Below are positions 4,631-48,769 of a stretch of DNA of 64,000 bases, one piece after another. The DNA is from Chiloscyllium plagiosum. Lineage: Eukaryota. The translations under genes were made by a program, and so were the position numbers. Position 1 is the stretch's first letter; each line of letters starts with the position of its first letter. Where the stretch lies: positions 3,317,514-3,381,513 of the forward strand of contig NC_057753.1 in NCBI RefSeq assembly GCF_004010195.1, given 5' to 3'. The notes under the pieces are model-generated. The model was not told the DNA's origin and searched no databases. It worked only from the letters and a program-made list of their open reading frames with translations.

Positions 4631-4666
4631 ATTCCTGAAGAAGGGCCTGTGCCCGAAACGTCGAAT
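4631..4666 (+). ncRNA. Minimal type I hammerhead ribozyme motif
   Basis: Same 36-mer as 4231-4266, on the + strand. Confidence 0.8.
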
Positions 4667-18692: not shown

Positions 18693-19282
18693 GTGGAAGG
18701 AACAAGCACAGTTTGAAATGGAGAGAAACACCCACCGTCTGTGTGTGGAACAATCCGTGAAGAATCATCTGAAATGTCAAAACACCCGCACAGGGGAGAG
18801 ACTGTGGAAATGTGGAGATTGTGGGAAGGGATTTCTTTTCCCATCCCAGCTCGAAATTCATTAACACCGTCACACTGCGGAGAAACCAGTCACCTGCCCT
18901 GAGTGTGAGAAGGGAATTCACACAGTCATCTGACCTGCTGAGACACCAGCGCGTTCACACCGGAGGGAGACTGTGCACTTGCTCTGAGTGTGGGAAAGCA
19001 TTCACTCGCTCAGCTAAACTGCTGGCGAACCAGCGAGCTTGCACTGGGGATAAACCATTCACTTGCTCGGTGTGTGGGTAAGGATTCATCGTGTCGTCCA
19101 AACTGCTGAGATTCCAGCAAGTTCACACTGGGGAGAGACCGTTCGCCTGTTCTGAATGTGGGCAATGCTTTGCTGAATTATCCTACCTGCTGGCACACCA
19201 GTGGGTTCACATTGGGGAGAAACTATTCAACTGCACCCAGTGTGGAAAGGGATTCATTTGGTCATTTGTTCATCTGGCCTGA
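18693..19282 (+). pseudogene. C2H2 zinc-finger pseudogene, paralog of the gene at 1-151
   Basis: Starts VEGTSTV*NGEK (compare MKGTTTVHRAEK). Contains [20 protein letters not shown] and [13 protein letters not shown], an in-frame TAA at 19079-19081 (CG*GF) and frameshifts. Followed by CR1 sequence from about 19290. Confidence 0.85.
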
Positions 19283-20490: not shown

Positions 20491-21506
20491 CAAGCTGTAT
20501 CCATATGTACTGACATTTTGGCTAAAATGGTCATAAAAGTGTCCATCTGTAGGGCAGCGTTTGCAAATGATCTCAATTCACTGTGTATCAACACATTCAC
20601 ACTGGATCGAGGCGATCCATCTGCACACTTTATGAAAATGTACTTTCTAGTACATCAAATGGTCAACGGGAATTAGAGGAACAAAATTGCAGGGAGATTG
20701 AGGAGACTTGCAGGAGCACTAGGGTTGAAATATTAGGGGATTTTAATCTATACAGCCTCAACTTGACCTCCCAACTCCTGTACTCAATGCTCTGACCAAT
20801 AAAGGAAAGCATACCAAATGCCTTCTTCACTATCCTGTCTACCTGTGACTCTACTTTCAAGGAACTAAACAACCTGCATTCAAGGTCTCTGTTCAGCAAT
20901 GCTCTCTAGGAACTTACCATTAACTGTATAAGTCCTGCTCTGATTTGCTTTTCCAAAATGCAGCACCTCATATTTATCTAAATTAAACTCCATCTGCCAC
21001 TCCTTCGCCCATTGGCTCATCTGATGAAGATCCCATATAATTTGAGGTAACCTTCTTCGCTGTCCACCCCACCTCCAATTTTGGTTTCTTCTGCAAGCTT
21101 ATTAACTGTACCTCCTATGTTCATATCCAAATCATTTATATCATTGACGAGAAGTAGTAGACCCAGCACTGATGCTTGTGGCACACCACTGGTCTCAGGC
21201 CTTCAGTCTGAAAAGCAAGCCTCCACCACCACCCTCTGTTTTCTATCTTCAAGCTGTATCCATATGTACTGACATTGTGGCTAAAATGGTCATAAAAGTG
21301 TCCATCTGTAGGGCAGCGTTTGCAAATGATCTCAATTCACTGTATATCAACACATTCACACTGGATCGAGGCGATCCATCTGCACACTTTATGAAAATGT
21401 ACTTTCTAGTACATCAAATGGTCAACGGGAATTAGAGGAACAAAATTGCAGGGAGATTGAGGAGACTTGCAGGAGCACTACGGTTGAAATATTAGGGGAT
21501 TTTAAT
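19989..21506. repeat. Tandem duplication, 2 x 759 bp
   Basis: 19989-20747 matches 20748-21506 with a few substitutions. The ORF track shows duplicated peptides. Confidence 0.95.
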
Positions 21507-26023: not shown

Positions 26024-27966
26024 TCACCATTTTAAAAGTTTAATAAGCAATCTCTGTGGATATTTCAACCCATTCCTTAACTCGTCTCTGAACTTATTCT
26101 GGGTCCCTGCATAAATAAACGGATTGATGCAGGAGCTCAGCAACTGAAGCATATACCCGGATTCCTCCAGGATAAAGTATGAGATGTTATCATCATAAAC
26201 CGAGTAATAAACCACCTTTGCGATTCGGACGTAGAAACACTGTTGCAAAAAATACCGAATAAAACAAAACAAAACTACCTGAAATGCCAAAGAGTAAGAT
26301 AATGGACTTCTTCCGTTTCTCCATCTCTGGATCAGTCTGATCCTCTCCATTGCTCAGGATTCGGAGTCTCCTGCGGGCTCGATTGGCCACTAAGATATGC
26401 CTGACAGTCAGAGCATTGAGCAGCAAAATCAGAATGAATGGGAGGCAGGGGACCAGAATGGAACGGATCAAATCATATGCGGCCCAGGCCTGTGAGGTAC
26501 TAAATATTAATTTTAGAACACAGAACCAGGGCACGTCATTAATTACGTACAATGGTTCAAATATAAAATATGAAAACACATTTTTACTACAGCTCAGCAC
26601 GCAGACGCCTCCTATCACCCACTTTGCTGTTATTTCTGTACAGTATTTGACTTTCAGCTTCTGGCAGCAAATGGCCACAAATCGATCAAAGGTGAAAGCG
26701 ACCGTTAACCAGGCAGAAATATCGATGACTGAATAAATTAGGACAACGCGGAGACTGCATACCGGTGTGATGGATAAGAAGCTGAATGGGAAATAAATGC
26801 CAGCAGTTCGGTTTATAATCACATTAACAGTAATGACCAAGAGATCTGCTAGCGCCATGGATACCACATAGTAAATGATGCATCCAGTGAGACCACATTT
26901 TCTTCGGTACAAGATTACAATCACTGACACATTAGCTGAAACAGAGAGAATGAAGAGGGAATAGTGAGAATTATGCCCGAGAGAGTGAGAGCAATGATAT
27001 CATTAGTTCAAATTTCAGCAAAATCGTACAGTTTGCACAATTCTGTGTGAATGCCAGAGAGTTGTGACTAGCTTTTGCTTCACTCTCTTTACCTGACAAC
27101 GGGGTAATGCTCTGAAAGTTTGTGATTTCAAATAAACCTGTTGGACTATAATCTGGTTTATTCTCGATAACATCTCCTTTGAGATTTGCAGCTCAGGTTG
27201 AGGTTCTGGATGTAAGTGTGCTCACTGCGCTAGAAGGTTCATTAGCAGTCATTTCGTCACCATACTAGGTAACATTATGAGTGAGCCTCTAGAACGTCAT
27301 CTGGAGGCTCACTGACGAGGTTAGTGATGAAAGGTCTGACAAAAATCTTCCAGCTCAATGGTCAAATGTACATCCATATATAAAAACTGTTCAGGCAGCT
27401 ACCATTAAGGGCAGGAATACACTGCCTGATTGCATGATGGAGGCAACGTTCAAAATTGAATTGAACACTGTGCAGCTTTACAGGGAGAATGTGGGAGAAT
27501 AGCATCAATTGAATTGTTTATCTGCAGAGCCGATACACACAAGATTAGCAGAATGCCTTCCTTCAGCTATCAAGTTCATGGAGAAAGTCAATGTGGAAAC
27601 ATCTTAAAGAAACTCAACTAGTAATGAAGATAAAGCATATTCATAACATAGACGATTAATAATGACAAACACAGTCAACAAGTCAAGTAAAATAACTCAA
27701 ATAACGTGGAGAATATTCTGACGGATAGATTTTAAAAATGGGATCTTAAGATAGAAGAGCCTAACTATTAAAGAAGAAATCAGAGTACTTTAAGTTGGAG
27801 AAGAGATATCCGCAATGTGAAAATGGACTATTAATGTTAAGCAAAGAGGGTTGATTCAACAAATCATCGAGTTAGGTCATAATTACAAATCTTTACCTGG
27901 TATCCCGATAGCTGCAAGAAAGTTATAATAAATGGAAAACAACAGGCCTTTTGGTGATATGTGCAT
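26024..27966 (-). pseudogene. GPR139/GPR142-like class A GPCR copy A: two exons, one +1 frameshift (pseudogene or sequence error)
   Basis: Exon 1 is 27966-27897 (MHISPKGLLFSIYYNFLAAIGIP), followed by a GT-AG phase-1 intron at 27896-26936 and exon 2 at 26935-26024. Motifs FTFDRFVAIC and CINPFIY are present. One extra base near 26234 splits ORFs 26193-26930 and 26024-26350; corrected length is 326 aa. Confidence 0.85.
27190..27378. mobile_element. Decayed palindromic Penelope-terminal remnant (second family), intronic
   Basis: Arms are inverted around GAGCCTC...GAGGCTC and carry residual CTGACGA...GAAA motifs. Another terminal remnant lies at about 27090-27158. Confidence 0.55.
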
Positions 27967-28017: not shown

Positions 28018-28051
28018 TTATATACGAGTCAGGCCCAAAGGGTTTAATTAG
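28018..28051 (-). promoter_or_regulatory. GPCR A proximal promoter: TATA plus O/E-like and homeodomain composite
   Basis: TATATAA on the minus strand at 28024-28018; CCCAAAGGG-T-TTAATTAG at 28034-28051. Confidence 0.55.
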
Positions 28052-28549
28052 TTGGTTGAATTTTTTTACAGAAATTGCCATGTTTACCAAAACAAAACAG
28101 ATAAGTGCAGCTGCATTTCTCCATACTTTGATGGTCTGAATCTAGAATGGGAAATGTCCAGGGATTGGAAAATGCCTTGACTGCCTTTACCAAAGTTCAT
28201 GGCCTGGGTTTTCAGTTCATGGCTGAAACAATTGGGTTTTCTCATGGTCAAGCTTAAAGGTGCGAATTCTCCTTGTTTGCTGTCACTGCGATTAAATACA
28301 ATCTCTGGCCGATGCATTGTTAGCCAAATAAAGTTCCGGTGCAGCCCAGCGAAGAGGCCAAATCTGGGAAAAGACACTCCCAATTATTGCATGACTGGTT
28401 GAATACAATCTTGTTCATACCCGTTTTTAGCTCAAAGATAGCGATATACTTTCTGATGACACTTATTATTTCTTCCAAACGCAATAAAAACTTCATTTTG
28501 TATTCATTTAATTCTGTTGAAAATACACTGGTCTTCCTACGTAGAACAT

Positions 28550-28876
28550 CACCAAAGATCTGTCGTCAGCACCTTCCAAACCCACGACCACTTCCATCTA
28601 GAAAGAAAAGGCCAGCGGGAACTTGGGAACGCGACTACCTGCAAGTTCCCCTCCAAGCCGCTCACCATCCTGACTTGGAAATATACCGCCATTCCTTCAC
28701 AGTCGTTGGGTCAAAATCCAGGAATTTTCAAACTACCAGCATTGTGGGTCAACACACAGCAAGTGGACTGCAGCGAGTCAAGAACACAGATCACCACGAC
28801 CTTTTCAAGGGCAAATGGGGATGGGCTATCAATGCTGGCCAGCCAGCGACGCCCAAGTCCCACAAATGAATAAAAC
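28550..28876 (+). mobile_element. L2/CR1-group LINE 3' end
   Basis: RQHLPNPRPLPSR and tail ATGCTGGCCAGCCAGCGACGCCC...AATGAATAAA. Same family as the copy at 55200-57248. Confidence 0.75.
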
Positions 28877-29579
28877 AAATCAGTTTGGATGCTGTAAATC
28901 TGAAATAAAACCATAAATACTCGAGAAGCTCAGAAGGGCAGGAAACATATTTGCAGAGAGAAAGTTAACATTTTGAATCCTATATTCCTGTTCATTACTC
29001 ATGTGAAACTCTGTTTTCAGCGCCAGATCAGAGATGCAGATTATTGTAGATGAAAATCACCTTCTGTCTCCCCAAAACCTGGCAATCTACAAAGCCATCT
29101 ACAAGGCACAAGTCAGAGGTCTGATGGAATATTTCCCCCAGGGTTGTACGAGGGCAGGTCCATTAACACTGGAGAGGTTTGGCACCAATGGAGGAGGAAA
29201 CAGCCCTCAGCAAGTGGGACGTGACCTCGGGCCTCCTAGCTCAGTAGTAAAGACGCTACTACTGCACCACAAGCACTTTACTGCACATGTATGAACACAT
29301 GTATGCGTTAGTTGGAATGCATATGGAGTAAGTGAGTATGAACAACAGAAGTGGAAACCAACTCAGAGTAGGGTACACTACTGCATGTTGTGCATCATAA
29401 ATTCATTCAGCTTGTTATGATCACAGAATGCACGAGACAATGTGTGGGTAGACGGGACGCAGTGAATGCCATGAACAAAAACAACAAAGAATCGATATTA
29501 ATGTATTTTCTATATGTACAATGTTTTACACACACGCATATATATATATATATATATATTTCATCTTCATGAAGTAAAT

Positions 29580-30470
29580 GGTTTAGTAATTAAATTGAAT
29601 AAATACTTTTCCCCGTTATTCAATTTTTCTCACATTTACTCTGTGCACAGACATAAACACTTGAGCTGATGCAATAACTCAAGAGCTCAAGACATTTTCA
29701 TCCAGACTAAGTAACAAATTAGAGAAATTGGACCCCGAAAAATAAGTGACATTTGTAATTTGAGTGAAATTAAAAATACTGAATAATATAAAGTGAAGCT
29801 GTCCGACATGGCAAAGATTAAAACAATGGACCTTGTGCATTTCTCCATGTCAGACCCCCTCTGATTCTCCACTTTTCTGAGCCCAGAGTCTCCGACGAGC
29901 GTTATTGGCCATTGGAATGTGACTGATCTTCACAGCATTGAGCAGTGAAATCAAAATAAATGGCAGATAATGTGTTAAAATGATGAGAATCCAGGCAGAT
30001 ACAACTAATATTGGTGAAATCAAACATATTGATTTTCCTTGAAAAAAACAACAGGGTATACTGTCAATCATGAAGAAGACTTGTCCAAAGTACAGAGGGA
30101 TGTTTACAGCAGAATTCAGTTCACAGATAGTTTCTATTATAATAGCTGACTTTTTCTTGATATAGGGCTTTGTCTTCATATTTTGGTAGCACATAGCAAT
30201 TGAACCATCAAATCTGAAAGCAGCCACTATCAGACAGAACAATCTCTGAATCCCTTTTTCAGAAAAAACGCCAAACGACAGATTGGATTGAAGGATAGCA
30301 AACTGAATGGACGATAAACACGTAGAATACTGTTTTCGATCACAGCTGTAAACATGCACAGATCTGTCGAAACCAATGACTTTGGTGTTTGCATGTTCGG
30401 TATCAATCAGGAGAACTATGCATACCTTGAATGTGAACAAACTGTCTCTCAAGACATTTTAATGTCACTA
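29580..30470 (-). pseudogene. GPR139-like GPCR copy B, heavily decayed exon 2
   Basis: AFRFDGSIAMCYQNMK (decayed FDRFVAIC), YLPFILISLLNAVKISHIPMANNARRRL and DMEKCTRSIVLIFAMSDSFTLYYSVF, in different frames. Confidence 0.85.
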
Positions 30471-32354
30471 ATGAGAAAGGTGAAACATACAAGTGTAATG
30501 AAGGCTCATTATGCTAGTGAAGGATAGCTATAATTAAATGGAGGGTTGAAATGGACAGTTGGAAGAAATGATGCTCTTTGGGGGTCGGGCAAATCATACC
30601 TGTTAAAGGTTAAAAACTAGTTTGTTTTTGTTAATGGACAAGTGATCTGTTTAAATGTAGAAATGACATCACTACCATGGAGAAGTACGCGATGAAAATG
30701 AGAAAATGAGAGCTATGCAAATAATCCCATAAGTAGCAATTGGCTAAGATTCTATGCCTGGAAGCCCGATTTTTGGAAGAAATGGTTAGTAAATGACAAA
30801 CACTAAGACTTTTAGTAATGAATGCATTTCTGGTCAAAAATTTGAGCATGTTATTCATTATGTTCCCAGATGGTCATGTCTTCTCTTCACGTCTTTCTCC
30901 ATGCAGAATATTAGTTGGTTTTCCCTGCTACATTAATGGTAATAATTGAAAGTGAAAAAAAAAAACACAACTTCATGAAGTTTTCACTGGCCTTACCCAC
31001 ACGTTGTAATGAAATGGATATTTTTGCAACTGCATGTTTTCCAATATTGAAACGCACAGAGATGATAAAAAGCTCATCGCGCTTTCCTTTTGCTCACTCA
31101 AAACAAAACGTTCAATGAAAAAGAGAAGATTTAACGTGGAGGACAAAACTGGAGTCGAAGAATTACTACCTTTAGCTCCTCAATGGTGAATTCAATGATG
31201 ATTGCACAATTTACAATTGAGCACGAATATTTTGAATAAATAAATGATAAATGCCAAATTTAATTGACACCTTATAAGGGCTGTCACGCAGTTTTCTGCA
31301 TTTTCTTTGCGGAGTAGTCGAGTTCAGTAATGTTACAGTTATATGTTATATTCAGCTCAGTTTTGGTGTGAGTTAATGTAGTCCAGATTAATTATATATT
31401 GTGTGTATGAGTTCACATGACGGTGTTGACTTTCAGAATGAAAAGGCTAATTCCTGCATGGTGGCGCTCAATTCCATTTCAGCACAGGTAAATTCTGGCA
31501 TTGTTCGCACTGATTAATCCGGGACAAGATTCGTGTGGTTTTCTTCGAAGTCTAGCTCCGTGTCATTACTTTCAGTGCGGCGATACCGCACTGATAGAAT
31601 CAATGGAAACATGCTCAGCCACTATTATGGTGAATATAACTAAGGTAGAAAATGTCCATTTGGTGTTTCCAAGTGCATTGCAGTACATGATTTTATTTAG
31701 TGAAAACACGTACAGGTTAAAGTCGGCACATTCACAGTACAGAGGCTAAATTCAGTGAAATCACACACTGAGTCCAAAATAATCCAGTTCCACGTCCTGA
31801 GCTGACAAGGTATTATTCAGCACGTTTACTTTCAGTGTGTATACATCGACCTTAAAGGTTTATTGTCAGTGTGGGATGCGACACAGCATTAAGGTCAAGT
31901 TCAGTTTTTAATAACAGCAAAATTGGCTGGAATTAATGTTCAGGGTCAGCAGCACAAATTGCCATATATTATCAGACCTGTTGAAAGTTTACACAATTTA
32001 ATAATTATTCTTCAATTTAAATGTCCTAAACCGTCTTTGCTCTGTATTATATGTTTACTTGTACATGAATATTTCAGCACATATTCAATCATTACGTATA
32101 TAGTTAGATCAGCATAGCTCTTTACAGTTTATACAGATCAAGTTATGTAATGTTAGATTTGGCGTGGACTTCGCTTCAGTCTGCCATCATGTATTGCGAA
32201 AACTTTCAGTTCATTCCCTTCCCACTCCAATGCCTAATTCTTCAGTTATCCTTTGACAGTTCTGGATGCCTGTCATACTTTAATTTTCACCAAAAAACAT
32301 TTAAAAACTCTGTATTTGCAAATACAGGCAACGGCATCCCATTGCTCCCAGCAG

Positions 32355-32642
32355 AGGCGGCACGGGGGCTCAGTGGTTAGCACTGTTGCCGCACAACACC
32401 AGGATTCCGGGCTCGATTCCAAGCTCGGGTGACTGTCTGCGTTGAGTTTGCGCATTCTCCCCGTGTATGCGTGGGTTTCCTCTGGGTGCTCCGGTTTCCG
32501 TCCACAGATGTGCAGGTTGGATGAATTGGCCATGCTTAAATTGCTAATTAGGTGCATTAGTCGGAGGGAAAAGAGGTTTCGGTGGGTTGGTGTTCGCCTG
32601 TTAGGCCGAAGGGCCTGTTTCCACACTGCAGGGAATCTAATC
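32355..32642 (+). mobile_element. HE1-like SINE
   Basis: Head, V-domain and tail match the other copies. Confidence 0.85.
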
Positions 32643-33299
32643 ATGTTGTCTTGTACACAAATCATGCAATTTTCATTGCTAATCCCTTTCCTCAATTTAA
32701 AGTTTTGAACGATTAATTTATGCTTTAATTTAACTACATCCTTCATATAAATCTGTTTCCATGTGTCAACTCATGTGGCAGAGCCATGTCTGCATTATGT
32801 CGTACGTGTGCACCTCGTTTATTGCAGTCCTAATCTTCATTTGTGCCTGACGTCTGTATCCGTGCACTATCCCCTTTGCTAAATATAACGCATTTATTTC
32901 AACATTCTCCCTCCTCAAGCTTTTATTTGGTCTCTGGAAACTCCCTGTGTTTCCCAAATTTGAAGTTCATTCGCCTGGCCATAGACCAAATCCCATTATA
33001 CATTTTAGGTCCTTACCTCCAGAAACACTTGCCACCACAGATGTCAGCTTTCTGCAAAATGGACTCACTCTGTGAGCTCAAAGAAAAACGTCTGGAGGCA
33101 CTGGATCCTGCAAAACTACAGTCCCTGGCAACATTCTGGCAACAGTACTGAAGTCTTGTATTCCAGAATGTACCACACACAAAGTCAAGCTGTTCCAGTA
33201 CAACCACAACACTGACATTTACCATGAAAATGTAGAAAATATACCACCCTATTTGTTGCACACACAAAAAAAGGAAAAATTCAATGAAGTCTTCCACTG

Positions 33300-34310
33300 T
33301 TCCATCAGTCTAGTCTTGATCATCATTAAAGTGATGGAAAGTGACATCACAATGTTTTAAGATCCTTAATTTAAAAGAAAACAGAAGCTGGATTTCAGAG
33401 ATGAGGTGGAAGTGACTGCCCTTGAAATTGAAAGTGAAACTACATTTGACAGAATAAGGTATAATGGAGCTGCATCGAAACTGACGTCAGTGGGTAACAT
33501 GAGGTAACAGTCTGGTGGTTTGTGTTTTGGCTGGCAAAAAAGCTGTGGTCGTTGTAGGTCTGTCAAATCACCTATAGGATATCACTGCAGGAGTTTCACA
33601 GAGGAGTGTCTTCGGTCCAACCTTCAGCTTCAGCGGCTTTACATCATCACGAGATCACAAGTTGCAGCTTTGCCGGTGAATGCACAATGACCAATCTTCT
33701 GTTGCTGAAGCAGTGCACACGAAAATATGCAACACCGTGACGTTAACAAAGCTTGAGATGACAAAAGATCCAAACGTGTTTCACACCAGAGAAGTGCCAG
33801 GCATGGACCATTTCCAAACAAAAGACAACCTGACCATTGTCTCGTGACACTCAATTACACGACTACCACTGACTGTCAACATCCTGAGGTGGAATTGAAC
33901 TGATCTAATCATATTAATGCTGTCGCCACGAGAGCAGCTCAGAGACTCGGAATCATGCTGCCAGTAACTCTCCACCGGACCTCCTAACAGGTTCGCACCA
34001 TTTTAGAAACCAAGTTAGGAGTGTGATGGGATGCACCTCATTTGCCTGGATATGTGTCGCTTCAACATCGCTCAAGAAGTTGACAACATTCAGGACTAAA
34101 CAATTTGCTCGATCTGCACGACATCCAGAGCTCTTCACTGGCTCTACGAGCAGCAATGTGCACCATCTCAAAAGGTAGACTGCATAAGGTGCCCAAAGAT
34201 AATGAGGCAGTACCCTCCAAACCAGCAAACACCTCTCTGCAGATGGACTCCGGTACCAAATAGAAGAGAATACATTTATGGCATTGCATAAGTTCACTTT
34301 GCAGTTGTAT
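33300..34310 (+). mobile_element. Old L2/CR1-group LINE fragment
   Basis: Degenerate match to the element at 56030-57000. Confidence 0.55.
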
Positions 34311-35099
34311 GAATTTCTTACCGGCATTTTCCACCTGGTCTCACCCATTGGGAATATCATGGACATGCTGGTGTTTAATTGGCACGAGAGACATATCTTT
34401 GCTGATATAAACTGCACAGCTTTTTTATTTGACTGTCATTCATCGAGTTATCTGAGTAAAGCGTCCTTATCCATCTGTTGATATGAACACATCCTAGGAC
34501 CTTTCATAACTCATACCTTAAATGTTTTGTCAAGAATTTGTTTGGGGGAGGTAGTTTGCAACTCTGCGTCCTGCATGCATTCAGTGTCGGACCCTTGGAA
34601 GCTCTGGCAATGGGAAGAGCACATAAAATGCCTGCAGACGATGCCTTCTTGTGACAATGCAGCAGTGCTACTCCGATTCTGTAATCAGTTATAGGTATCT
34701 GGCTTTTTGCGCTAGCAGGTCTCTGTAAACGATCTCGCTTGGTGAACATTGAAAAACAAGGTTCATGACTGGCTCTGATAGTTCCTCTTCAAAGAAATTG
34801 CCGCATCTGCCCTTATTACAAAATTTAAATGAAAACGCACCATTTTAAGTCGTTATCTCTTCCATCATTAACTAAATTTGGCGGATGATGAAATGTATTA
34901 ACACTGTGTTGAACGTCGAGGAGGGTTTTATTGAGCAGTACGTCAATCATCCAACTCAGGAAGGAGTCATTCTGGAACCTGGTTTTGGGGAATGAGCCCA
35001 GCCAGGTGGTTGAACTTTCAGGAGGGAATTATTTTGGAAATGGAGATCACAATTCCTTAAGTTGTAGAATACTCTTGAACAAAGACGAGAGTTGTCTGA

Positions 35100-37330
35100 A
35101 ATGAAGAACGTAGAACAATACAGTGGAGAACAGTACCTTTGGCCCTCGATGTAGTGCCGACCTGTGATATAATCTAAGCCCATAGCCCTACACTATCCCA
35201 TCATCATCCATTTGCTTATCCAAGGATTGTTTTAATCTCCCTAATGTGGGTGAGTTAAATACATTGGTAGGCAGAGCATTCCACGCCCTTACCACCCTGT
35301 GAATAAAGAACCTGCCTCTGACATTTGCATTAAATCTATCACCGCTCAATTTGTAGCTATGCCCCCTCTCCGTGAAAGCTGACGTCATCACCCTAGAAAA
35401 AAGACATTCACTGTCTCCCCGATGTAATCCTCTGATCATCTTGCATGTCTCCATCAAATCCCCTCTTTGCCTTCTTCTTTCCCATGACAACAGACCCAAG
35501 TCTCTCAGCCTTTCCTCATAAATCCTTCCCTCCAGACCAGACAATATCCTGGTAAATCTCCTCTGCACCTTTTCAATGCTTCCACATCCTTCCTGTAATG
35601 GAGCGACCAGAACTGTACACCAGAATTCCAAGGGCTGCCGTACTAGCGTTCTGTATAGTTGCAGCATGACATCACGGCTCCGGAACTCAGTCGCTCTACC
35701 AATAAAACCGAACACACTGTATGCCTTCTTAACAGCACTAAAAAACCTGGGTGGCAACTTTCAGGGATCAATGTACATGGACACCACGATGTCTCTGCAC
35801 ATCCACACTACCAAGAATCTTTCCATTGACCCAGTATTCCGCCTTTCTGTTCTTCTTCCCAAAGTGATCACCTCAGATTTGTGTACATTGAACTCCATTT
35901 GCCACCTCTCAGCCCAATTCTGCTGTCTATCCAAAATCCCCTGCAGCTTGGAACATTCTTCCACACTGTCCACTACTTCACCAACTTTACTGTCATCTGC
36001 AACTTACTAACTTAACCACCGATGCCTGCGTCTAAGTCATTTATAAAAATGAAAAATAGCAATGGTCCCAAATCAGATCCTTGTGGCACATCACTGGTAA
36101 CTGGACTCCAGGCTGAATAATTTCCACCGACTACCACTTGTTGCCTTCTTACAGAAAGCCAGTTTCTAATCCAAACTGCTAAATCATCCTCAATCCCATG
36201 CCTCTGCATTTTCTCCAACAACCGACCATGTGGAACAACATCAATGGTTTTACTGAAGTCCATGAGTACCACATCAACTGTCTAACCCTCAGCCACTTGC
36301 TTGGTCACCTTCTCAAAAACCTAACGTGGTCTGTGAGACATGACCTCCCTTTGACGAAACCACGTTGACTATCTGCAATCAAATTATTGATTGCTTGATG
36401 ATTATAAATCCTATCCCTGATAATCATTTCCAAAACATTTTCCTACAACAGATGTAAGTCTCACTAGTCTATAATTACCTGCGTCATCTGTACTGCCCTT
36501 CTTGAATAAGGGAACAACATTTGCAATCCTCCAGTCCTGTGGAACTAAACCTGTAGATAAGCCGAATCAAAGATCAAAGACAAAGTCCCCAACACCTCCT
36601 CCCTTGCTTCCCAAAGAATCCTCCGATAAATCTCGTTCAGCCCAGGGGACTTGTCTATTTTCACTCCTTCTAGAATTAATAACATGTCTCCCTTATTAAC
36701 CTTTATCCTTTCTATTCTAACATCTCGTATCTCATTCTTCACCTCTGCAATATTCTTCTTTCCCTGAGTGAAAATGGATGATAAATATTCGTTTTGTACC
36801 TCTCTGATTTCCCTTGGGTCAACACACAACTTCTCACTTCTGCCTTTGACTGGTTCTATTCCTGCCCGAGTCATCCTTTTGTTCCTCACATCCGGCACTG
36901 TGGCTCAGTGGTTAGCCGTGTAGCCACACAACGCTCAGGAACCCGGCTTCGATTCCAGCCTCTGGCGGCTGTCTGTGTGACGTTTGTGCGTTCTCTCCGT
37001 GTCTGTGTGGGTTTCATCCCACAGCCTGGTGCAGGCCCGTTGAACTGGCGATGCTCATATGCCTATAACGTTAGGTGTGCTAGTCAGGGGTAAATACAGG
37101 GGAATGGGTTTGGGTGGGTTAATCTTCGGAGAGTCAGGGTGGACTTGGTGGGCTGAAGGGCCTGTTTCTATACTGGAGGGAGCCGAATCTAATACCTATA
37201 GAAAGCTTTAGGTTTCTCCTTTATTCTGCCTGCTAAAGATTTTCATGTCCTCGCTTTGCTCTTCTTAACTCTCTCTTTAAATCCTTCCGAGCCAATCTGT
37301 AACTGTTCATCACCTTATCTGAACCATCTT
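35100..37330 (-). mobile_element. CR1 LINE (RT region to 3' end) interrupted by a SINE
   Basis: [47 protein letters not shown]. Confidence 0.9.
36893..37192 (+). mobile_element. HE1-like SINE
   Basis: Degenerate SINE consensus. Confidence 0.8.
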
Positions 37331-37339
37331 GTATCGTTT

Positions 37340-39385
37340 TGGTAAACTGGGGGAAAATTTCACAGGAGCTGTGAGATGTGGATTGCTAGTAACTGTTTGA
37401 AGGTAAATCAACATTTGATGCGTGGGAGGTTTTTAAACAGAGGTTGATTGGAGTGCAAGAAAGACGTGTTCCTGCGAAAATGACAGATAGAGATAGGGAG
37501 ATTAGGGAACCCTGGAGGACAGCTGAAATTGTGAGACTAGCTAAGAGGAAATAGGAAGCATATATTAGGTCTGGGAGACTGAAGACAGCCGAAGCTTGGG
37601 AAGAATATTAGGAGCGTAGGAACAATCTGAAACGAAGAATTGAGAGAGATAAAAGTGATCATGTGTTACCTTTAGCAAACAGGGTTAAAGAAAACGCCAA
37701 AAGCTTTATTCACATATAACGGCCAAAAGCGTAACTAGAGAAAAGGTTGGCTCACTCAAGGACAAAGGAGGAAAGTTGTGCGCAGAGGCAGATAGAATGG
37801 AAGAGATTTTTACTGAGTACTTTGCATGTGTATTCACTGAGGCGAGTGAAATGACAGATGTTGAGGTTAGGAATCGATGTTTGATTGTTCCAGGTCAAGC
37901 CAGCAGAAGGAGAGAGGAAGTGTTGGGTATTCTAAAAAAGCATTAAGGTAGACAAGTGCACATGTCCGGTCAGGATCTATGCCAAGTTACTGAGTGAAGC
38001 GAGAGAGGAAATAGCTGGGGTCTTAACAAATATATTTGCAGCATCGTTGTACACGGATGAGGTCCCAAAGGACTGGAGAAGTGCTAATGTTGAACCCTTG
38101 AATCAAGAAGGTTTATCAGGGATAACACAGGTCACTTTGAACTGGTGATCCTGACGTCAGAAGTAGAGAAACTGCTGGAGAAGATACTGAGATATAGGAT
38201 CTAATCCCATTTGGAAGAAAATGGGCTTATCAGTGATAGACAACATGGTTTTGTGCAGTGAAGGTCTTTTCTTACCAACTTAATACAGTTCGGAGAGGAA
38301 GTGACAAAGTTGATTGATCTGGGAAGAGCTTTAGATGTCGTATACAGGGGATTCAGTAAGATATTTAATAAGGTTCCCCATGGTAGGCTGATTGAGAAGG
38401 TGAAGTAGCTTGGGCTCCAGGGTGTACGAGCTAGATGGATCTAGAACTGGCTGATCAGCAGGAGACAGAGATTCGTAATGGAAGGGATCAGGAAGTTTGC
38501 TGATGCCACGAAGGTGGGTGGAGTAGCAGATAGTGAAGGGGACTGTCAGAGAATAGACCTGAGTGTAGATAGATTGGACAGATAAATGGTAGATGAAGTT
38601 CAGTCCAGGCAAATGCGAGTTGATGTATTTTCGAAGATACATTTCAAGAGTGACCCATATAGTAAATGGGAAAGTTCTGAGGAAAATTAATGTACAGAGA
38701 GATCTGGGTGTTCAGGTCCATTGTTCTGTGAAGGTGGCAACGCAGAGTATTGAAGAAGGCATATGGCATGATTTTCTTCATCAGATGGGATATTGAGTAC
38801 AAGAGTTGACAGGTCATGTTACAGTTGTAAAAGACTTTAGTTTGGCCACATTTGGAATACTGCGTAGAGATGTGGTCACCACATTGTCAAAAGGATGCGG
38901 ATGCCTTGGAGAGGGTGCAGAGGAGATTCACTCGGATGTTGCCTGGCATGGAGGACGCTAGCTGTCGAGGGTCTGAATAGGTTACGATTGTTTTCATGAG
39001 AAAGACAGAAGTTGAGGCGACATGTTTGAGGTCCACGAAATCATAAGAGGTTTCGACAAGGTGGATAGCAAGTAGCTGTTTCCTAGTGTGCGGGGATTCA
39101 ATTACTCGGGGTCATGAGTTCAAGTTGAGAGGGGCACCTTTTCAGGGAGAGACGTGTCGGAAGTTCATTAGGCAGAGAGTGGTGGGTTCCTGGAATGCAG
39201 TGTCAGTGGCAGAGACAGGCACGATGGCATCATTTAAGATATATCTTGACAGATGCATGAGTAGGAAGAGAGCAAAGGGATACAGACCCTTAGAAAATAG
39301 GCGACGGGTTTAGTTAGAGGATCTGGATCAGTGCAATCTCAGAGGGCTGAAGCACCAGTTTCTGTGCTGTTATTTTCTTTATTCT
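37340..39385 (+). mobile_element. CR1 LINE, decayed
   Basis: RDLGVQVHCSVKVA and RGHEFKL; many stops. Confidence 0.8.
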
Positions 39386-39544
39386 TTGCTGCTGTTCTAT
39401 ATTTTTGCAGCTTACAAGTGCAGTGAAAGATTGCTGTGACTAGTATTTGAAATGCATTAGTAACGTCCGCTATACACAGTGACAGAACGATGGCAGGACT
39501 CTTGATTTGTGAACACGACGAAAGGTACAGGTACTGTTTCGGAA

Positions 39545-40155
39545 GTACATAGAACATAGAACATAGAACATAGAACATAGAAGAATACAGCGCAGTACAG
39601 GCCCTTCGGCCCTCGATGTTGCGCCGATCCAAGCCCACCTAACCTACACTAGCCCACTATCCTCCATATGCCTATCCAATGCCCGTTTAAATGCCCATAA
39701 TGAGGGAGAGTCCACCACTGCTACTGGCAAGGCATTCCATGAACTCACGACTCGCTGAGTAAAGAACCTACCCCTAACATCAGTCCTATACCTACCCCCC
39801 CCCTTAATTTAAAGCTATGCCCCCTTGTAATAGCTGACTCCATACGTGGAAAAAGATTCTCACTGTCGACCCTATCTAAACCCCTAATCATCTTGTACAC
39901 CTCTATCAAGTTACCCCTAAACCTTCTTTTCTCCAATGAAAACAACCCCAAGTGCCTCAGCCTTTCCTCATACGATCTTCCTACCATACCAGGCAACATC
40001 CTGGTAAACCTCCTCTGCACCCGTTCCAGTGCCTCCACATCCTTCCTATAGTATGGCGACCAAAACTGCACACCATACTCCAGATGCGGCTGCAACAGAG
40101 TCTTATACAACTGCAACATGACCTCAGCGCTCCGGAACTCAATTCCTCTACCAAG
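39545..40155 (-). mobile_element. Young CR1 3' end with (TTCTATG)n tail
   Basis: LQLYKTLLQPHLEYGVQFWSPYY. About five ACATAGA units at about 39548-39582. Lies about 420 bp downstream of the GPCR C stop codon. Confidence 0.9.
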
Positions 40156-40575
40156 TCTGTGAATATTCGACATAGCTTCAACAACTTGCATAGCTCTGGT
40201 CAAAGGAGTGGTACAATGTTTCTGATTCGAGAATAATTTATCAATGAGTAGCAATGGTTGTAGTTGTTTGCAACAGTCTCCAAATAGGAACAAATGCACA
40301 ATAATAATAGGAAAGAATCCTCCTGACTGACTCACACTATCAATCCCACTTTCAACATTAACATTCTGGACAAATCCTGAATAAGCAGGGGACGGACAAT
40401 TGGAAATCAACTGCAAACAAATTGCTACACTGGCTTTTATAGCCTTGCAACGTTCCTCGTACATTTCTGAATTTATCAGTAAGGCAATGTCTAACAAACC
40501 CCGCATGTGTAGCTGACTGTCAAGAGGAGGATGTGCTACACTAAAGCATGCAATTGATTTCAGGCTATCCCTTTA

Positions 40576-43297
40576 TCAATGTTTAAACGTTTTAATAAAT
40601 AGGTTCAACATAAATTTCTTTAATTCATCTCTAATTTTGCTCTGCGTTACAGCATATATAAATGGGTTGATGCAGAAACTCAATAACTGGAGCATATATC
40701 CAGTTTGTTGCAAATAAAATGTGGCATTACGCAAAGTGGATCCTGAGGAATACGTAACATTCGCAATTCGAACATAGAGAATGTTTACGAAAAATAACGA
40801 ATATAATAGAATGAAAGTGCCCGAGATGGAAAAGAGTAAAATAATGGACTTTCTCCGTTTCTCCATCTCTGGGTCACGCTGAGTCTCTCCATTATTCTGA
40901 AGCTGGAGTCTTCTCCTGGCTCTATTGGCCAAGAGAATGCATCTCACTGTCAGTGCATTTAGTAGTAGAATTAGAATAAAAGGGAGACATGGATTTAAAG
41001 CAGAACGGATCCAGTCATATGCAGCCCAAGCAGGTGACGTATAAATAGTAGTCATTATGCTACACAGCCAGGGTGTATTGTTGATTACGTATCTGGGTTC
41101 AAATTGAAAATATATGAAAATGTTTTTCATACCGCACAGAGTAGACACTACCCCTATCACCCACGCTGTCACCTTCTTGGTGCAATATTTTACTTTCAGG
41201 TTCTGGCGAGATATAGCCACAAATCGATCAAAAGTAAAAGTGACAGTTAACCAGGCAGAATTGTCAATAACTGCCAGATTTAATGCAGCACGAAAACTGC
41301 ACACTGGTGTGATAGAAAGGAAACTGGATGGGAAATAAATCCCAACAATTCGATTTAAAATCACAGCTGTGACCATGACCAGGAGATCTGTTGCTGCCAT
41401 TGCCACCAAATAGTAAGTGATACATCTAGAGAGACCACAGGTTCTTCGAGATAGGACTGCAATCACTATTAGATTAGCTGGAAGAAAGAAAGAGAGTGAG
41501 TTACAATCGGACCATTTCTTCTTCTAATTACAATCAGGTTTCCTATATTACAGGACTTTTTCAGAAGTTTCAAGATTTTAGAAAGAAATCATAATTTGGA
41601 CATCATTCCTTACTTTGTGGAATAATTGACTTTTGAATGAAACACTGAAACGTGGAAACCAAATTAACGACGCAACAAAGATTTAGAAATCTTTGCAGAT
41701 AGCAACAATTCACCCACCAACAATTCACCACTTCTTTCAGTTGAGACCAATTCCAGGACAAGAATACATTTTAAAAATGCATTTAATATGTCACAAGCAT
41801 AAAAATACCAAAGTAAGCAAATCCTCCCAACAAAGAGAATATGTTGAAAGAGGTAATCTACAAAGCACAAACAATATGGTGGAAACTGGCAATGACATGA
41901 ATTAAACTGGAAATATGCAACTCTCCAACTTCACAGACTTTATTCTGGGATTGATTCGATGACCGAGCTATTCATGGGAGAATAATCTCTCATTTGTGGC
42001 GACGATGGAAAGCATGGAAACTGGGTGGTGATGAGAATTTGTTCAGAGAAAGTCCTTCCTGCAGTGCAGCACTCACCAGAGGTTGATTGCACAGTCATGA
42101 TAAATAATGACGCGTTTCTCATTTGCATTTTTAAAATTAAACCTTACAAATGCAATACAATAAATGCGAAAATTGTGAAGATTCATTCAATTTTAGAAGA
42201 ACAACAAAACTAGAAACAGTCCAGGCTAATGTCGAAAGCTTAGGGTGAGAGGAGAAAGCTATAAAAGGGACCAAAGAGGCAACTGTTTCACTCAGATGGT
42301 GGTACGTGTATGGAATGAGCTGCCCGAGGAAGTGGTGGAGGCTGGTACAATTGCAACATTTAAAATGCCTTTGGATGGGTATATGAACAGGAAGAGTTTG
42401 GTGGGATATGGGCCGGATGCTGGCAAGTGGGACTAGATTGGTTTGAGGTATCTGGTCGGCATGGACGAGTTGGACTGAAGGGTTTGTTTCCACGCTGTAC
42501 ATCTCTATGACTCTATGAAAGATGGAAATTCCATATCAGCAAACATCGCATTAGAACAATCAGAAACATTTAATGTAGAATGAACGTGCAACGCTTAAAC
42601 TGCCAGCACTAGTGACTGTAAACAAAAACAAATGCGTTCTGTGCATTATTGACAAATTCCAATTTTCACTTAAAGCAGAAACACAATATTGTTATATATC
42701 TTTGAACATTTCGAAAACTAATTAATCCCCTTCGTTAAAATCAGTCATTAAATGCAGATGGAAATTGTTCAACAGTTGAATATACTGAAGCAATAATGCA
42801 TTCATGCATTTTTCCCCTTTCCTTCAAAGAAAATTGCACTTTCAATCCAGATGTATGACGGGATGATGGTGGAAATAACCTCCACAAAAGAAAACTAAAA
42901 TATGATGATAACCTGAAAGTTTCGTTAATAATGCCACGATAGATCTACTTTTACAGAACAGTAACTGCTTAGTAATTGACCAAGTCTCATGTTGCCAACA
43001 CTGCAGCTGAATTGGTTTTAAATTGTGACTCATGCCTTTAACACTGTAGAAATCTATTACATTATGTATCCACCTTCACGGAACATATCACAATGTTGAA
43101 TCCAAATGTTTCATCCTATTGAATCGGAGAAACAATATTTATTGCTACTGGCGTCGTGATACTGGTAAAACTGGAGAACTGACGCAACTAATCAGTAACT
43201 CTACATTTTGAACTCTCAACGTTTTACCTGGAAGACCAATAGCTGCAAGGACTGGATAATAAATGGCAAAGACCAAACCTCTTGGTATCTCATGCAT
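40576..43297 (-). CDS. GPR139/GPR142-like class A GPCR copy C, intact, two exons, 323 aa
   Basis: Exon 1 is 43297-43228 (MHEIPRGLVFAIYYPVLAAIGLP), followed by a GT-AG phase-1 intron at 43227-41478 and exon 2 at 41477-40576 (ANLIVIAVLSRRTCGL...). It has seven hydrophobic segments plus MAATDL, FDRFVAI and CINPFIY. Exon 1 is 70 nt, as in copy A. In-frame upstream ATGs exist, so the start is inferred from the paralog. Confidence 0.9.
42240..42517 (+). mobile_element. CR1 3' end in the GPCR C intron
   Basis: VWNELPEEVVEAGTIATFK and a CTATGACT tail. Confidence 0.9.
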
Positions 43298-43377
43298 TTC
43301 TGACAGATGGTCTGAGCACTTTTCATGAATCATCGAAACATGACTACATTTGTACATAGTTACATATGCATTTCAAA

Positions 43378-43395
43378 CTCCAGGGAATTAATTAG
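43378..43395. promoter_or_regulatory. GPCR C proximal O/E(EBF) plus homeodomain composite
   Basis: CTCCAGGGA (matches YYYCARRRR), then A, then TTAATTAG, about 80 bp upstream of the ATG. Confidence 0.6.
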
Positions 43396-46061
43396 TCAAA
43401 TTTGCTTTTTCCATTATGACTTTCATTGCAGTGAGCAGATTGGTGTTTTTTCTGATTATTTCACTTTTAATTGGAATGGATGTTCAATTCATGCGGCCTG
43501 AAATTGATCTGAAGTGACATGCACAGCGATTAAATGAGGACGAAGGTATTATTTCGACATTTAAAAAAAGCATTATTGCTGTCTGAATATTGCCTTTAGA
43601 ACACAGCAGTGGATTCCTTTGGAAACTTTAATGAGATAGGCAAACATTTCGACGAAAGCACAGCCATGCTCTACCACTGTTATATCCTTTCAATCATGAT
43701 TCAGATGCGACATGAATCCAGTCAATGCAGATGCAATAAAACATCAGTCTAACATTGCGTTAACATTCAACTTGGAAGAGACATTGATGACGATGCCTCC
43801 AGCAAATTCCTATCATTTTAACGCACAGGGATAGCAACCCAAACCAAATTACCATCTCCAGCACTAAATTAGAACAAACTATTAAATGTCCAGCAAAATT
43901 GCTCGATTGTTGTTAAACAAGCTTTCCAAACAACCAAACTTCGAGAACAAGTTTACCACTTGAGTAGAAAATGTAGCTTTTACAGAGGACAAATAAAGTG
44001 TAAGGCAATATCTGTGATTTAAATCTAATTGTCTTTGAATATATATCAAAGGCAGACAGGCAAACACAGTTAATGAATCAATATTTTAAAAGTAATGCTA
44101 ATTTGCCAGGTGAATAACCATTTCATCGCCAAATACCAGACAGTCATGAAATACTTTGATGATGGTGGTATTCAAGTCGTATATATTTTGCATGAATTCT
44201 GAAGTCACTGGAAAGCGTAAAAAACATCTGAATGCCCCTGGAGACATCTGGTGCAAACTGGTGTTCTTCTCTCAGAACTTTCAACAAATTGATGACGAGA
44301 AAATAGCTACAGACAGCAAAACTGAAAACAGCTTCCTTGTCTGGCAGCTTCGAAAACGATACTGTTTGCTGCCCAAGCCCAGGCAAGAAACGTTTATTTT
44401 TTGTTTTCTCTTTATTTTTCAATTTTCCCCGTGTTTGCTTCGCCAGCAACGGTTCTCACTTGTTGTCCAATTCAACATCTAAACAGCTGCTATTTCCTGA
44501 GCATGATAATATTTAGGTGCTGATAGGCTATCTCTCCTGGCTCTTTAAACAAACTGCATTGAGAAAATAAGCACTGCGACTTATTGCTTCTTCAATAAGT
44601 CTGAACTGCACGACGTACACTTTCCAATTAAGCACACGTCTTATGGCTTCCATGGAGAGATTCCTGACCAGTCAGCTTGCTCTTATAAAAAGCTTCTGAC
44701 AAGGTTCCACGTGATAGACTCTTGCTCTTGCTAATTTGATACAATAAGTACACGAAACATTGTTATTATTCTTTTCCCCTTTATGTATACATCCAATCCT
44801 GTGAAAAACCTGACCAATGATGTGGGCAGCCCTAGGTTCCCATGGTCTTATGATGCTTACCATACTTTGTAATCATCAGGCTTACAAAGTATCCCATAAA
44901 TCCACATTTCAATGTCAACAATTATTCTCTTTTCGAGACATTTACCAAGCTCGCTTACATTTAAGGGTTGCTTGAATTCTGGAATTAATTTTATTCATTG
45001 CTATCACCATCAAAGTATCTCCCTCATCTTTCATTCCCACTCGGGAGAGTGGTGCTGGAAAAGCACAGCAGGTCAGGCAGCATCTGAGAAGCAGGAGAAT
45101 CAACCTTTCGAGCATAAGCCCATTTTGATCAAGCCAATCCTCCTGCTCCTTTCCTCACTCTCTTCTTATAATTCCCACTGATATAATCACAGGGTATACA
45201 AAAGGAAATTAGTTCCTAGCTATTGATTATAAGATTCCTAATATTAGTTCGAATATAAAGTTAATTAAATGTAAAGTTTTATGTTTACACCTATTGCTAG
45301 AAACCTTGAGATAATGATTTGTGCACAGTTTTGGCACACCTGCCCTTGGAGTTTCTGTTAGGCACTATTGCTCAAACTTGCAACTGCATTATAACTCATT
45401 CTAGTCACATGCTGATTTCTGTGATTAACATTTTCTCCTCCTAAGATAATATATCTTTCATTGATAAGACGAAAGTTTAATCACTGCCACAGCTCAATGA
45501 ACTTCTCCAATCTCCGAGATTTTTCGGAGTCATAATACCATCCTTACCATTTGTCTCTGATATTATGGGATCCCAGTTTTATGTTTAATGCTTGCTACAG
45601 ATGTCAGGTTGTCTGATCTTGCAATCTCTTATCGAACTGTCTCCTACACTCATCTGCAGCGAGTGATTTTTTGCAGTTCTCCCTGTCAATTATTTGGTAA
45701 GATTCTTTGTTCAACGTGGACTCTGTTACGTTGGGAAACGTCCTTTTCAAAGCTACCATTGTGCTACCTTTTGCACTCAATTTAATGCTGGACGAGGCAG
45801 GCTAATTCTATTGCTGCTGCTATATGTATGTCAACAGACGACCATATTGTGCCACCTCTGACCAGGGGCTGCCCCGACACAGAGCAAATAATCAAGGTTT
45901 GGTTTTCAGACTGGAGGGATGTGACCAGCTATGCCCACTTTTGTTTGTCATTTATGTAAATTATTTAGGAGAAAGTGAGGACTGCAGATACTGGAGACCA
46001 GAATTGAAAAATGTGTTGCTGGAAAAGTGCAGCAGGTCAGGCTGCATCAAAGGAGCCGGAG

Positions 46062-46097
46062 AATCGACGTTTCGGGCATAAGCCCTTCTTCAGGAAT
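46062..46097 (-). ncRNA. Minimal hammerhead ribozyme motif
   Basis: Reads ATTC-CTGAAGA-A-GGGC-ttat-GCCC-GAAA-CG-TC-GATT. Confidence 0.75.
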
Positions 46098-48358
46098 GAG
46101 GAGGGTGTGCCAAGCAGGCTAAGATAAAAGGTAGGGAGGAAGGATTTGGGGGAGGGGCATTGGGAATGCGATAGGTGGAAGGAGGTTAAGGTGAGGATGA
46201 TAGGCCAGAGAGGTGGTGGGGGCGGAGAGGTTGGGAAGAAGATTGCAGGTCAAGAAGGCGGTGGTGATTCCGAGGGTTGGGACTGAGATAAGGTGGGGTG
46301 GAGGGGAAATGAGGAAGCTGGAGAAATCTGCATTCATCCCTTGTGGTTGGAGGATTCCTAGGTGGAAGATGAGGCGCTCTTCCTCCAGGCGTCGTGTGGC
46401 CAGGGTCTGGCGATGGAGGATGCCAAGGACCTGCATGCCCTTGGCGGAGTGGGAGGTGGAGTTAAAGTGTTCAGCCTCGGGGCGGTTGGGTTGGTTGGCG
46501 CGGGTTTCCCAGAGGTTTTCTCTGAAACATTCTGCAAGTAGGCAGCCTGTCTCCCCAATGTAGAGGAGGCCACATCGGGTGCAGCGGATGCAGTAAATGA
46601 TGTGTGTGGAGGTGCAGGTGAATTTGTGACGGATATGGAAGGATCCCTTGGGGCCATGGAGGGAAGTGAGGGGGGTGGTGTGGGCGCAAGTTTTGCATTA
46701 CTTGCGGTTGCAGGGGAAGGTGCCGGGAGTGTAGGTTGGATTGGTGGGGGATGTGGACCTGATGAGGGAGTCACAGAGGGAGTGGTCTTTCTGGAACGCT
46801 GATAGAGGAGGGGAGTGAAATTGATCCTTGGTGGTGGGGTCTGTTTGGAGGTGGCGGAAATGATGAAGGATGATACGATGTATCTGGAGGTTGGTGGGGT
46901 GGTAGGTTAGGACCAGTGGGATTCTGTCCTGGTGGCGATTGGAGGGGCGGGGTTCACGGGCAGAGGAGCGGGAAATGGAGGAGATGTGGTGGAGAGCATC
47001 GTCAACCACGTCTGAGGGGAAATTACCGTCTTTGAAGAAGGAGACCATTTGGGTTGTTCGGTATTGGAATTGGTCCTCCTGGGAGCAGATGTAGCGGAGG
47101 AAAAGGTGGGGGGTGGTGCCAGTGTAGCTGTGGAAGATGCGAGGAGGTTGAAATATTCATCCACTTTACTAACACCTTTCACCCCGAACTCAAATTTACC
47201 TGGACCGTCTCAGACTCCTCCCTCCCCTTCCTAGACCTCTCCATTTCCATCTCGGGCGACCGAATAAACACGGATATTTACTATAAACCGACCGACTCCC
47301 ACAGCTAACTAGATTACACCTCCTCCCACCCTGACCCCTGTAGAAATACCATCCCATATTCCTAATTCCTTCGCCTCTGCCGCATCTGGTCCTAGCAGGA
47401 CCAAGTCCAATATCGAACAACCCAGATGGCCTCCTTCTTCAAAGACTACAATTTCCCCTCAGACGTGGTTGACGATACTCTCCACCCCATCTCCTCCACT
47501 TCCCGCTCCTCCGCCCTTGAATCATGCCCCTCCAATCGCTACCAGGACAGAACCCCACTGGTCCTCACCTACCAGCCCACCAACCTCCAGATACATTATA
47601 TCATCCTTCGTCATTTCCACCACCTCCAAACAGACCCCGCCACCAAGGATATATTTCCCTCCCCTATCAGCGTTCCAGAAAGACCACTCCCTCCGTGACT
47701 CCCTCATCAGGTCCACAGCCCCGACCAATCCAACCTCCACTCCCAGCACATTCCCGTGCAACCGCAAGAAATGCAAAACTTGTGCCCACACCTCCCCCCT
47801 CACTTCCCCAAGGGATCCTTCCATATCCATCACAAATTCACCTGCACCTCCACGCACATTTACTGTATCTGCTGCACCCGATGTGGCCTCCTCTACATTG
47901 GGGAGACAGGCCGCCTACTTGCGGAACGTTTCAGAGAACAGCTCTGGGACACCCGCACCAACCAACCCAACCGCCCCGAGAGTGAACACTTTAACTCCCA
48001 CTCCCACTCCGTCAAGGACATGCAGGTCCTTGCCCTCCTCCATCGCCAGACCATAGCAACACGACGCCTGGAGGAAGAGGGCCTCATCTTCCGCCTAGGA
48101 ACCCTCCAACCACAAGGGATGAATGCAGATTTCTCCAGCTTCCTCAGTTCCCCTCCCCTCCACCTTATCTCAGTCTCAAACCTCGGAATCAGCACCGCCT
48201 TCTTGACCTGCAATCTTCTTCCTGACATCTCCGCCCCACCCCCTATCTGGCCTATCACCCTCACCTTAACCTCCTTCCACCTATTGCGTTCACCAACGGC
48301 CCTCCCCCAAGTCCCTCCTCCCTACCTTTTATCTTAGCCTGCTTGGCACACCTTCCTC

Positions 48359-48394
48359 ATTCCTGAAGAAGGGCTTACGCCCGAAACGTCGATT
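48359..48394 (+). ncRNA. Minimal hammerhead ribozyme motif
   Basis: Reads ATTC-CTGAAGA-A-GGGC-ttac-GCCC-GAAA-CG-TC-GATT. Confidence 0.75.
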
Positions 48395-48769
48395 CTCCTG
48401 CACCATATAAATTATTTAGCTGAGAACATGGAAGGCATGATTATTATGTTTGTAAGTGAGATCAGAATTGGCAGTATATGGGACAGCGATGAAGGTAATT
48501 GAAGATTATAAAAAGATTGTGATCAATTGGGTCAACGAGACAGAGAATTGCAAACGAATTTTAATTTGGATAAGTGTGAGGTATTTTATTTTGATAAACA
48601 AACAAAGGCAGGACTTATCCAATTTTAAGTCAGGCCTTGAATGATGTTGTGGAAGCGAAACTTCTAGGGTTAAGATACACGATCCTTTGAATCTTGAGTC
48701 ACAATAGATAGGATGGCTAAGAGGGTGTTAAGCATATTAGCATTCAATGCTCAGAGTTCTGCGTTTTGC

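Follow-up and report, generated by a model that had tools for sequence, protein, structure and literature searches.

Within a 64-kb window of the Chiloscyllium plagiosum genome (the whole stretch of DNA that was analysed, 64,000 nucleotides of contig NC_057753.1), three tandem copies of a gene for a G protein-coupled receptor (GPCR) of class A, here called A, B and C and all located on the minus strand, carry a composite element less than 100 bp upstream of the start codon. The element consists of a homeodomain-type TAATTA site followed, after a single nucleotide, by a degenerate site resembling those of Ebf/COE (O/E) factors, and it is present in a decayed form in copy B. We conclude that this composite is probably a real element of the proximal promoter. 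Within that conclusion, the homeodomain site is likely to be functional, and the balance tips slightly toward function of both halves. The full account, in which the composite serves as the homeodomain and Ebf site of a compact TATA promoter used in neurons with both factors, most plausibly olfactory ones, has in our assessment an even chance of being correct.

Each gene copy is composed of a 70-nt coding exon 1 and a single long exon 2 (Table 1). The original prediction had described the receptors of A and C as preserved, which proved too generous, because only C is intact. The closest relative among the matches listed to copy C exon 2 is whale-shark P0001, at 84% identity. In copy A, one extra base in a short T run at 26235-26237 shifts the frame ahead of the seventh transmembrane segment (TM7), and TM7 is lost as assembled. 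The whale-shark orthologue of copy A, P0118, is intact at 326 aa, and the frameshift in A may represent either a young pseudogene or an assembly error.

We confirmed the sequence and coordinates of the sites first described on the forward strand, which read CTCCAGGGA-A-TTAATTAG at 43378-43395 upstream of copy C and CCCAAAGGG-T-TTAATTAG at 28034-28051 upstream of copy A, along with their common orientation, their 1-nt spacing, a TATATAA near the copy A element (28018-28024, minus strand) and a location roughly 70-100 bp before the ATG (the element starts at -98 in C and at -85 in A). Read on the gene strand, copy C has TAATTAA-T-TCCCTGGAGT from -97, with 6/8 Ebf bases in register, and copy A has TAATTAA-A-CCCTTTGGGC from -84, with 5/8. 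The original prediction had counted two copies, which holds for A and C but leaves out a third element at -87 of copy B, where TAATATT-C-TGCATGGAGA begins at -86 and retains ACTAAT together with 5/8 Ebf bases in register. Relative to the published mouse composite pattern, which likewise places the homeodomain site before the Ebf site in fixed orientation at 1-bp spacing, there are no mismatches in C, one in A and three in B (the last counted by hand). As a separate observation, the intron of copy C holds a second TAATTAA followed by TCCCC at 42719-42736 on the plus strand, with 4/8 Ebf bases in register, which may be due to chance.

The element is rare within the window. As defined in the original prediction, with at most one O/E mismatch, the composite occurs three times in 128,000 strand-positions (64 kb, both strands), and two of these occurrences are at the promoters of A and C. 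Only 6 of the 87 TAATTR sites in the window are accompanied by at least 5/8 Ebf bases in register, and C and A are two of the six. Furthermore, C and A rank as the top two by Ebf score among the 21 TAATT sites in the window that lie within one mismatch of the published pattern.

A view of the same region in other sharks was provided by two database gene models, P0069 and P0122, that run in frame through the promoter, such that the upstream DNA is visible as translation. If these extensions represent contiguous genomic DNA, as we infer from their similarity, they report on the conservation of the composite. The horn-shark model P0069, which is 63% identical to C, features LIISLES at -87 and R-Y-K around -57. 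The LIISLES codons can encode TAATTA with 7/8 Ebf bases at -86 and require just one mismatch in 18 nt to the composite of C, which is the best match of the extension to the upstream DNA of C; other windows need at least 2 mismatches and non-overlapping windows at least 3. Among 1015 open 44-codon frames taken from the window as controls, the composite was encodable anywhere in 7 and at -100 to -80 in none, and 0.6% of shuffles (n=3000) could encode it at -100 to -80. In a set of 400 control frames, a single one came as close to C as P0069 did. Under neutral descent, the P0069 match has a P of 0.005 at 52% identity and 0.02 at 60%. The zebra-shark model P0122 shows S-N-Y, which is compatible with TAATTA, at -91, and both models place Y-K at codon -19, which is compatible with a TATA box (TATAAA) at -57, as for the TATA box of copy A. 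The full composite thus appears to fit one of the two read-through models, whereas the homeodomain and TATA sites appear to fit both. Among 20 N-terminal extensions of at least 25 aa, P0069 alone can encode a forward composite with at least 6 Ebf bases; the rest mostly resemble predictions with spliced-on sequence and carry no information on this point. A search with P0069 residues 1-150 revealed no read-through model besides P0069 and P0122 among the best 120 of 407 matches, and a search with residues 1-68 returned two candidates only. Taken together, the case for a homeodomain and Ebf promoter site is strengthened by the geometry shared with mouse, by the distance of about 30 bp to a TATA or TATA-like box and by the recurrence in P0069; the support for selection acting on both halves comes from this single outside gene model.

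The sequence and geometry of the element, how rare it is in the window, the structures of the genes and the size of the family are observations, and to these we add, by inference, the bound proteins, the point where transcription begins, selection acting on the Ebf half and the cell type to arrive at the following proposal. A compact TATA promoter would have been copied along with each gene of this subfamily of shark GPR139-like receptors, and the element would serve as its upstream activator site. TAATTA would be bound by a homeodomain protein of the LIM or paired type (Lhx2/Lhx9 or Emx). The degenerate palindrome next to it, separated by one base and lying about 30 bp upstream of the TATA box, would be occupied by an Ebf/COE dimer. 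The homeodomain site lies about 30 nt from the TATA position in A, C and P0069, and transcription would start approximately 25-30 nt before the ATG. As in mouse composites, what selection would preserve is the core of the homeodomain site, the spacing and an Ebf half with pyrimidines followed by purines, not the precise sequence of that half, and expression would be confined to neurons that contain both factors, most plausibly olfactory sensory neurons.

The proposal draws on the regulation of mouse olfactory receptor (OR) genes. The composite of Lhx2 and Ebf sites is reported for 35 of 63 mouse OR enhancers (PMC5608512), with an Ebf half that accepts pyrimidine and purine runs while the spacing stays fixed (Monahan et al., 2017; PMC5608512). 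The 1-bp spacing is specified together with a search pattern in PMC11643329, and the J element of class I OR genes requires the composite (PMC7804114). The shark element resembles the composite of these enhancers, the Greek Islands, in having the homeodomain site first, the same orientation, 1-bp spacing and a degenerate Ebf half, and it shares orientation and register with the Sfaktiria probe used for electrophoretic mobility shift assays (PMC5608512 supplement). In contrast to the Greek Islands, which are intergenic enhancers within OR clusters and apart from promoters, the shark element occurs as a single copy near a TATA box, 85-98 bp before the ATG of a gene that does not encode an OR. 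Because it sits in a promoter, the shark element is not a Greek Island, although it is built like the enhancer composite. It also resembles mammalian OR proximal promoters, in which both site types lie near the gene start of a clustered GPCR family that evolves by birth and death. Unlike the shark element, those promoters mostly contain two separate sites rather than a 1-bp composite, and the shark genes differ further by a coding region split after the 70-nt exon 1 and an apparently very short leader. The original prediction had taken adjacent O/E and homeodomain sites as typical of both promoters and enhancers of mammalian OR genes; mammalian OR promoters do carry O/E-like and homeodomain sites (PMC3247230), but the 1-bp composite is an enhancer feature in mouse and is depleted from OR promoters (PMC11643329).

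The receptors that carry the element belong to a large family. A search with copy C exon 2 identified 1789 relatives among 3929 candidates, and the best 120 of these include 119 shark proteins, mostly named 'probable GPR139' in RefSeq, and one without a name. The receptor contains the Pfam domain 7tm_1 only, and its best relative of solved structure is GPR139 (E 6e-7; PDB 7VUG and 9M42, which are GPR139/GPR142 class A receptors). None of the relatives listed is named as a member of the OR, TAAR, V1R/ORA or V2R/OlfC families, and by sequence we place the shark receptors outside all four. The repertoire is large and clustered and includes pseudogenes, as indicated by the three tandem copies, of which one or two are broken, by the 1789 relatives and by many contigs with exon-2 paralogues. 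In two runs that behave as DNA, X1 and X2, the summed contig depth at 85% likeness, which is not a copy number, reached 2469-3647 in mid exon 2 and 170-192 in exon 1 and fell to 5-21 in the upstream DNA that includes the motif bin, where no listed contig piece spans the motif. The high depth on exon 2 and low depth upstream show that there are many paralogues with diverged upstream DNA. In a 43-row tree, built without a verified human GPR139 row, the shark receptors fall together in a clade (100/100), outside which lie the rows from coelacanth, teleost, lamprey and amphioxus, and the copies observed here all fall in one subfamily. Although GPR139 provides the closest solved structure and the RefSeq name, it is a brain-expressed receptor to which the shark genes, with their very many members, are only distantly related. 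A salamander 'GPR139', P0220, falls inside the shark clade on a long branch, and its placement raises the possibility that the family may extend beyond cartilaginous fishes. Another relative, P0074, is a receptor fused to zinc fingers. The exon-1 pattern had 0 matches in viral and prokaryote contigs, and its single match in metagenome contigs was a chance one, as the DNA is unrelated and apparently bacterial.

Besides the depletion of the composite from mouse OR promoters, several observations weigh against the account of a compact TATA promoter used in olfactory-type neurons, and we consider them together with the alternatives. With respect to the promoter, the TATA stretch of C is degenerate and copy B lacks a TATA box. 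With respect to the cell type, the olfactory neurons of the catshark are all reported to be of the microvillous type, which does not express ORs (PMC10116579), and GPR139 itself is a brain gene in mammals and zebrafish, with highest expression in habenula and striatum (PMC12208981). Points in favor of olfactory expression are the motif type, the large clustered family with gene death and a relative, GPR139, that is reported to be activated by amino acids; we tentatively regard olfactory expression of the shark family as possible, though somewhat short of probable. In a catshark 'brain and olfactory epithelium' library, no GPCR is reported among the 50 most specific genes (PMC11979771), but such a list would not inform on a family expressed one gene per cell. 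In X5, a single-cell run (2 in 100 of the run), copy C had no coverage over its promoter, exon 1 and 3' end (depth 0) and a depth near 1 over a stretch of exon 2, and a further run, X6, gave no coverage of copy C at all; neither was counted as evidence.

The activity of Ebf and LIM-homeodomain factors is not limited to the nose. A promoter site that is real but non-olfactory would result if only the homeodomain core works, or if Lhx and Ebf proteins drive the genes in other neurons, such as those of the brain, lateral line, electroreceptor organs or solitary chemosensory cells. We consider this explanation unlikely, despite several results that it would accommodate. Identical letters are found mainly in the homeodomain half, in which A and C agree at 9/9 bases, compared to 5/10 across the aligned spacer and O/E half. 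P0122 offers only 4/8 Ebf bases in register, with 5/8 on the other side, and thus has no in-register Ebf site. The brain expression of GPR139 would also fit, as would the widespread presence of Lhx2/Lhx9 in the forebrain. However, the Ebf-like half retains at least 5/8 bases in A, B and C, and up to 7/8 in P0069, all in the mouse register. In addition, the shark genes belong to a clade apart from the single-copy bony-fish rows, and because of this separation the brain pattern of GPR139 need not carry over.

We also evaluated whether the composite could be a neutral relic, a word that the ancestral gene happened to have and that its paralogues have yet to lose. As the original prediction had noted, the flanks are poorly conserved, with 40-60% aligned identity between A and C in 30-nt bins from -300 to -31, and fourfold-degenerate sites, used as the neutral yardstick, are identical at 33/63 (52%). 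The longest word shared in the 300 nt upstream is the homeodomain word, at 9 nt between A and C and 11 nt between A and B. However, in a blind scan of the upstream DNA under a neutral model without indels, identities of 52% and 60% give P values of 0.33 and 0.69 for a shared run of 9 anywhere in 288 nt; for a run of 6 shared by all three copies, P is 0.28-0.62. In the proposed comparison with neutral flanks, conservation among the window copies on its own does not exceed what neutral ancestry yields (P ~0.3). Because of these values, and because only half of the spacer and O/E positions are identical, the window alone does not prove selection. Pseudogene B still has ACTAAT and 5/8 Ebf bases, and the copies observed all belong to one subfamily, as a relic would predict. 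The published pattern is also permissive, with 112 exact matches in the window, and P0069 is a single case in which the DNA is seen through ambiguous codons; its P increases to 0.08 at the site with a neutral identity of 70%, or to 0.02-0.09 at 52-60% identity when any 6-codon window is allowed. Despite these points we judge a neutral relic to be quite unlikely, since the word that is kept best falls on a pattern with one further occurrence in 128,000 strand-positions, and in the horn-shark paralogue this word again gives the best match, with no other window coming as close.

An explanation based on splicing signals, in which CTAAT acts as branch point and the 3' splice site is CAG|AAATG, would place an untranslated first exon and the promoter further upstream. 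ACTAAT resembles the branch-point consensus, and CAG lies two bases before the ATG in all three copies. Most mouse V1R genes are reported to have 5' untranslated exons (PMC3247230). However, CTAAT lies 80-93 nt from the AG with 3-5 other AGs in between, the pyrimidine fraction before the candidate AG is 0.59 versus 0.88-0.94 at the real exon-2 acceptors, and copy A has a TATA box in between. P0122 has K in place of E before the Met, which would probably eliminate the AG while keeping a purine at -3. We conclude that splicing is a very unlikely explanation. The least probable alternative is an immune-cell promoter, in which EBF1, the B-cell factor, would activate the expanded receptor genes in lymphocytes. 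EBF1 recognizes sites of this class, and expansion is common among shark immune families, but the adjacent homeodomain site, the best-kept half, would be left unexplained.

An olfactory-type promoter signature on hundreds of orphan receptors would be significant because it offers a cheap and direct test for an overlooked chemoreceptor family. In the mainly open-access literature covered on shark or chondrichthyan GPR139, and on Lhx2/Ebf in catshark or vomeronasal contexts, we found no account of the family expansion or its promoter. A 2019 white-shark genome paper reportedly described additional copies of an orphan GPCR and proposed that it takes part in smell. The passages covered from the whale-shark genome paper, a catshark paper (PMC11979771) and a survey of vertebrate GPCRs (PMC6504862) did not mention the expansion or the promoter either. 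The shark repertoire has been described as a keen nose with a small receptor set in which ~34 V2Rs are dominant (PMC10116579). We doubt, without dismissing it, the broader proposition that sharks and rays hold a further, undescribed olfactory family of hundreds of GPR139-derived genes with an Lhx2/Ebf composite in each proximal promoter. If it were true, that family would be far larger than the known ~34 V2Rs, and the Lhx2/Ebf composite would predate the shark-mammal split and be at least as old as jawed vertebrates. It would also be located in promoters, a position from which it is depleted in mouse receptor genes, and may have started as a promoter element. Should the family turn out to be non-olfactory, the element would still point to the type of cell that uses this very large group of orphan receptors.

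Table 1. Receptor gene copies and promoter features in the window (window coordinates; negative numbers are relative to the ATG).
Feature	Position	Strand	Description
Copy C exon 1	43228..43297	-	70 nt from ATG; GT donor
Copy C exon 2	40576..41477	-	with exon 1 encodes an intact 323-aa class A GPCR
Copy C composite	43377..43395	-	C-TAATTAA (43394-43388), 1-nt spacer, Ebf-like TCCCTGGAGT (43386-43377); starts at -98
Copy C degenerate TATA-like stretch	43351..43366	-	TATGTAAC at -69, TATGTACA at -61; putative function, from position alone
Copy A exon 1	27897..27966	-	70 nt; GT donor
Copy A exon 2	26024..26935	-	frameshift from 1 extra base at 26235-26237
Copy A composite	28033..28051	-	C-TAATTAA, spacer A, CCCTTTGGGC; starts at -85
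Copy A TATA box	28018..28024	-	TATATAA, -58 to -52
Copy B exon 1	30758..30827	-	in-frame TAA; GC in place of donor GT; pseudogene
Copy B exon 2 remnant	29629..30376	-	frameshifts; tblastn matches in three frames
Copy B decayed composite	30896..30914	-	C-TAATATT, spacer C, TGCATGGAGA; starts at -87

The remainder of the window is abundant in repeat fragments, which we take to be CR1-like and Penelope-like. A 26-bp satellite array was not found upstream of A, B or C. The intron of copy C includes, at 42236-42518, a very high-copy repeat with a summed contig depth in the millions that is also present in RNA reads. Within a GC-rich stretch, eight copies of a GC-rich 61-bp unit lie at 3384-3876, each with CCAAT and GGGCGG, and the array looks like a tandemly repeated promoter. 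A repeat with an 84-bp period at 18976-19162 is probably a relic of C2H2 zinc fingers. Recent local duplications and fold-backs were observed as a 759-bp direct repeat (97%) in 19989-21506, a 673-bp repeat (94%) in 9364-10690, a 554-bp palindrome (95%) in 4172-4725 and a 1056-bp inverted pair (89%) in 46052-48404.

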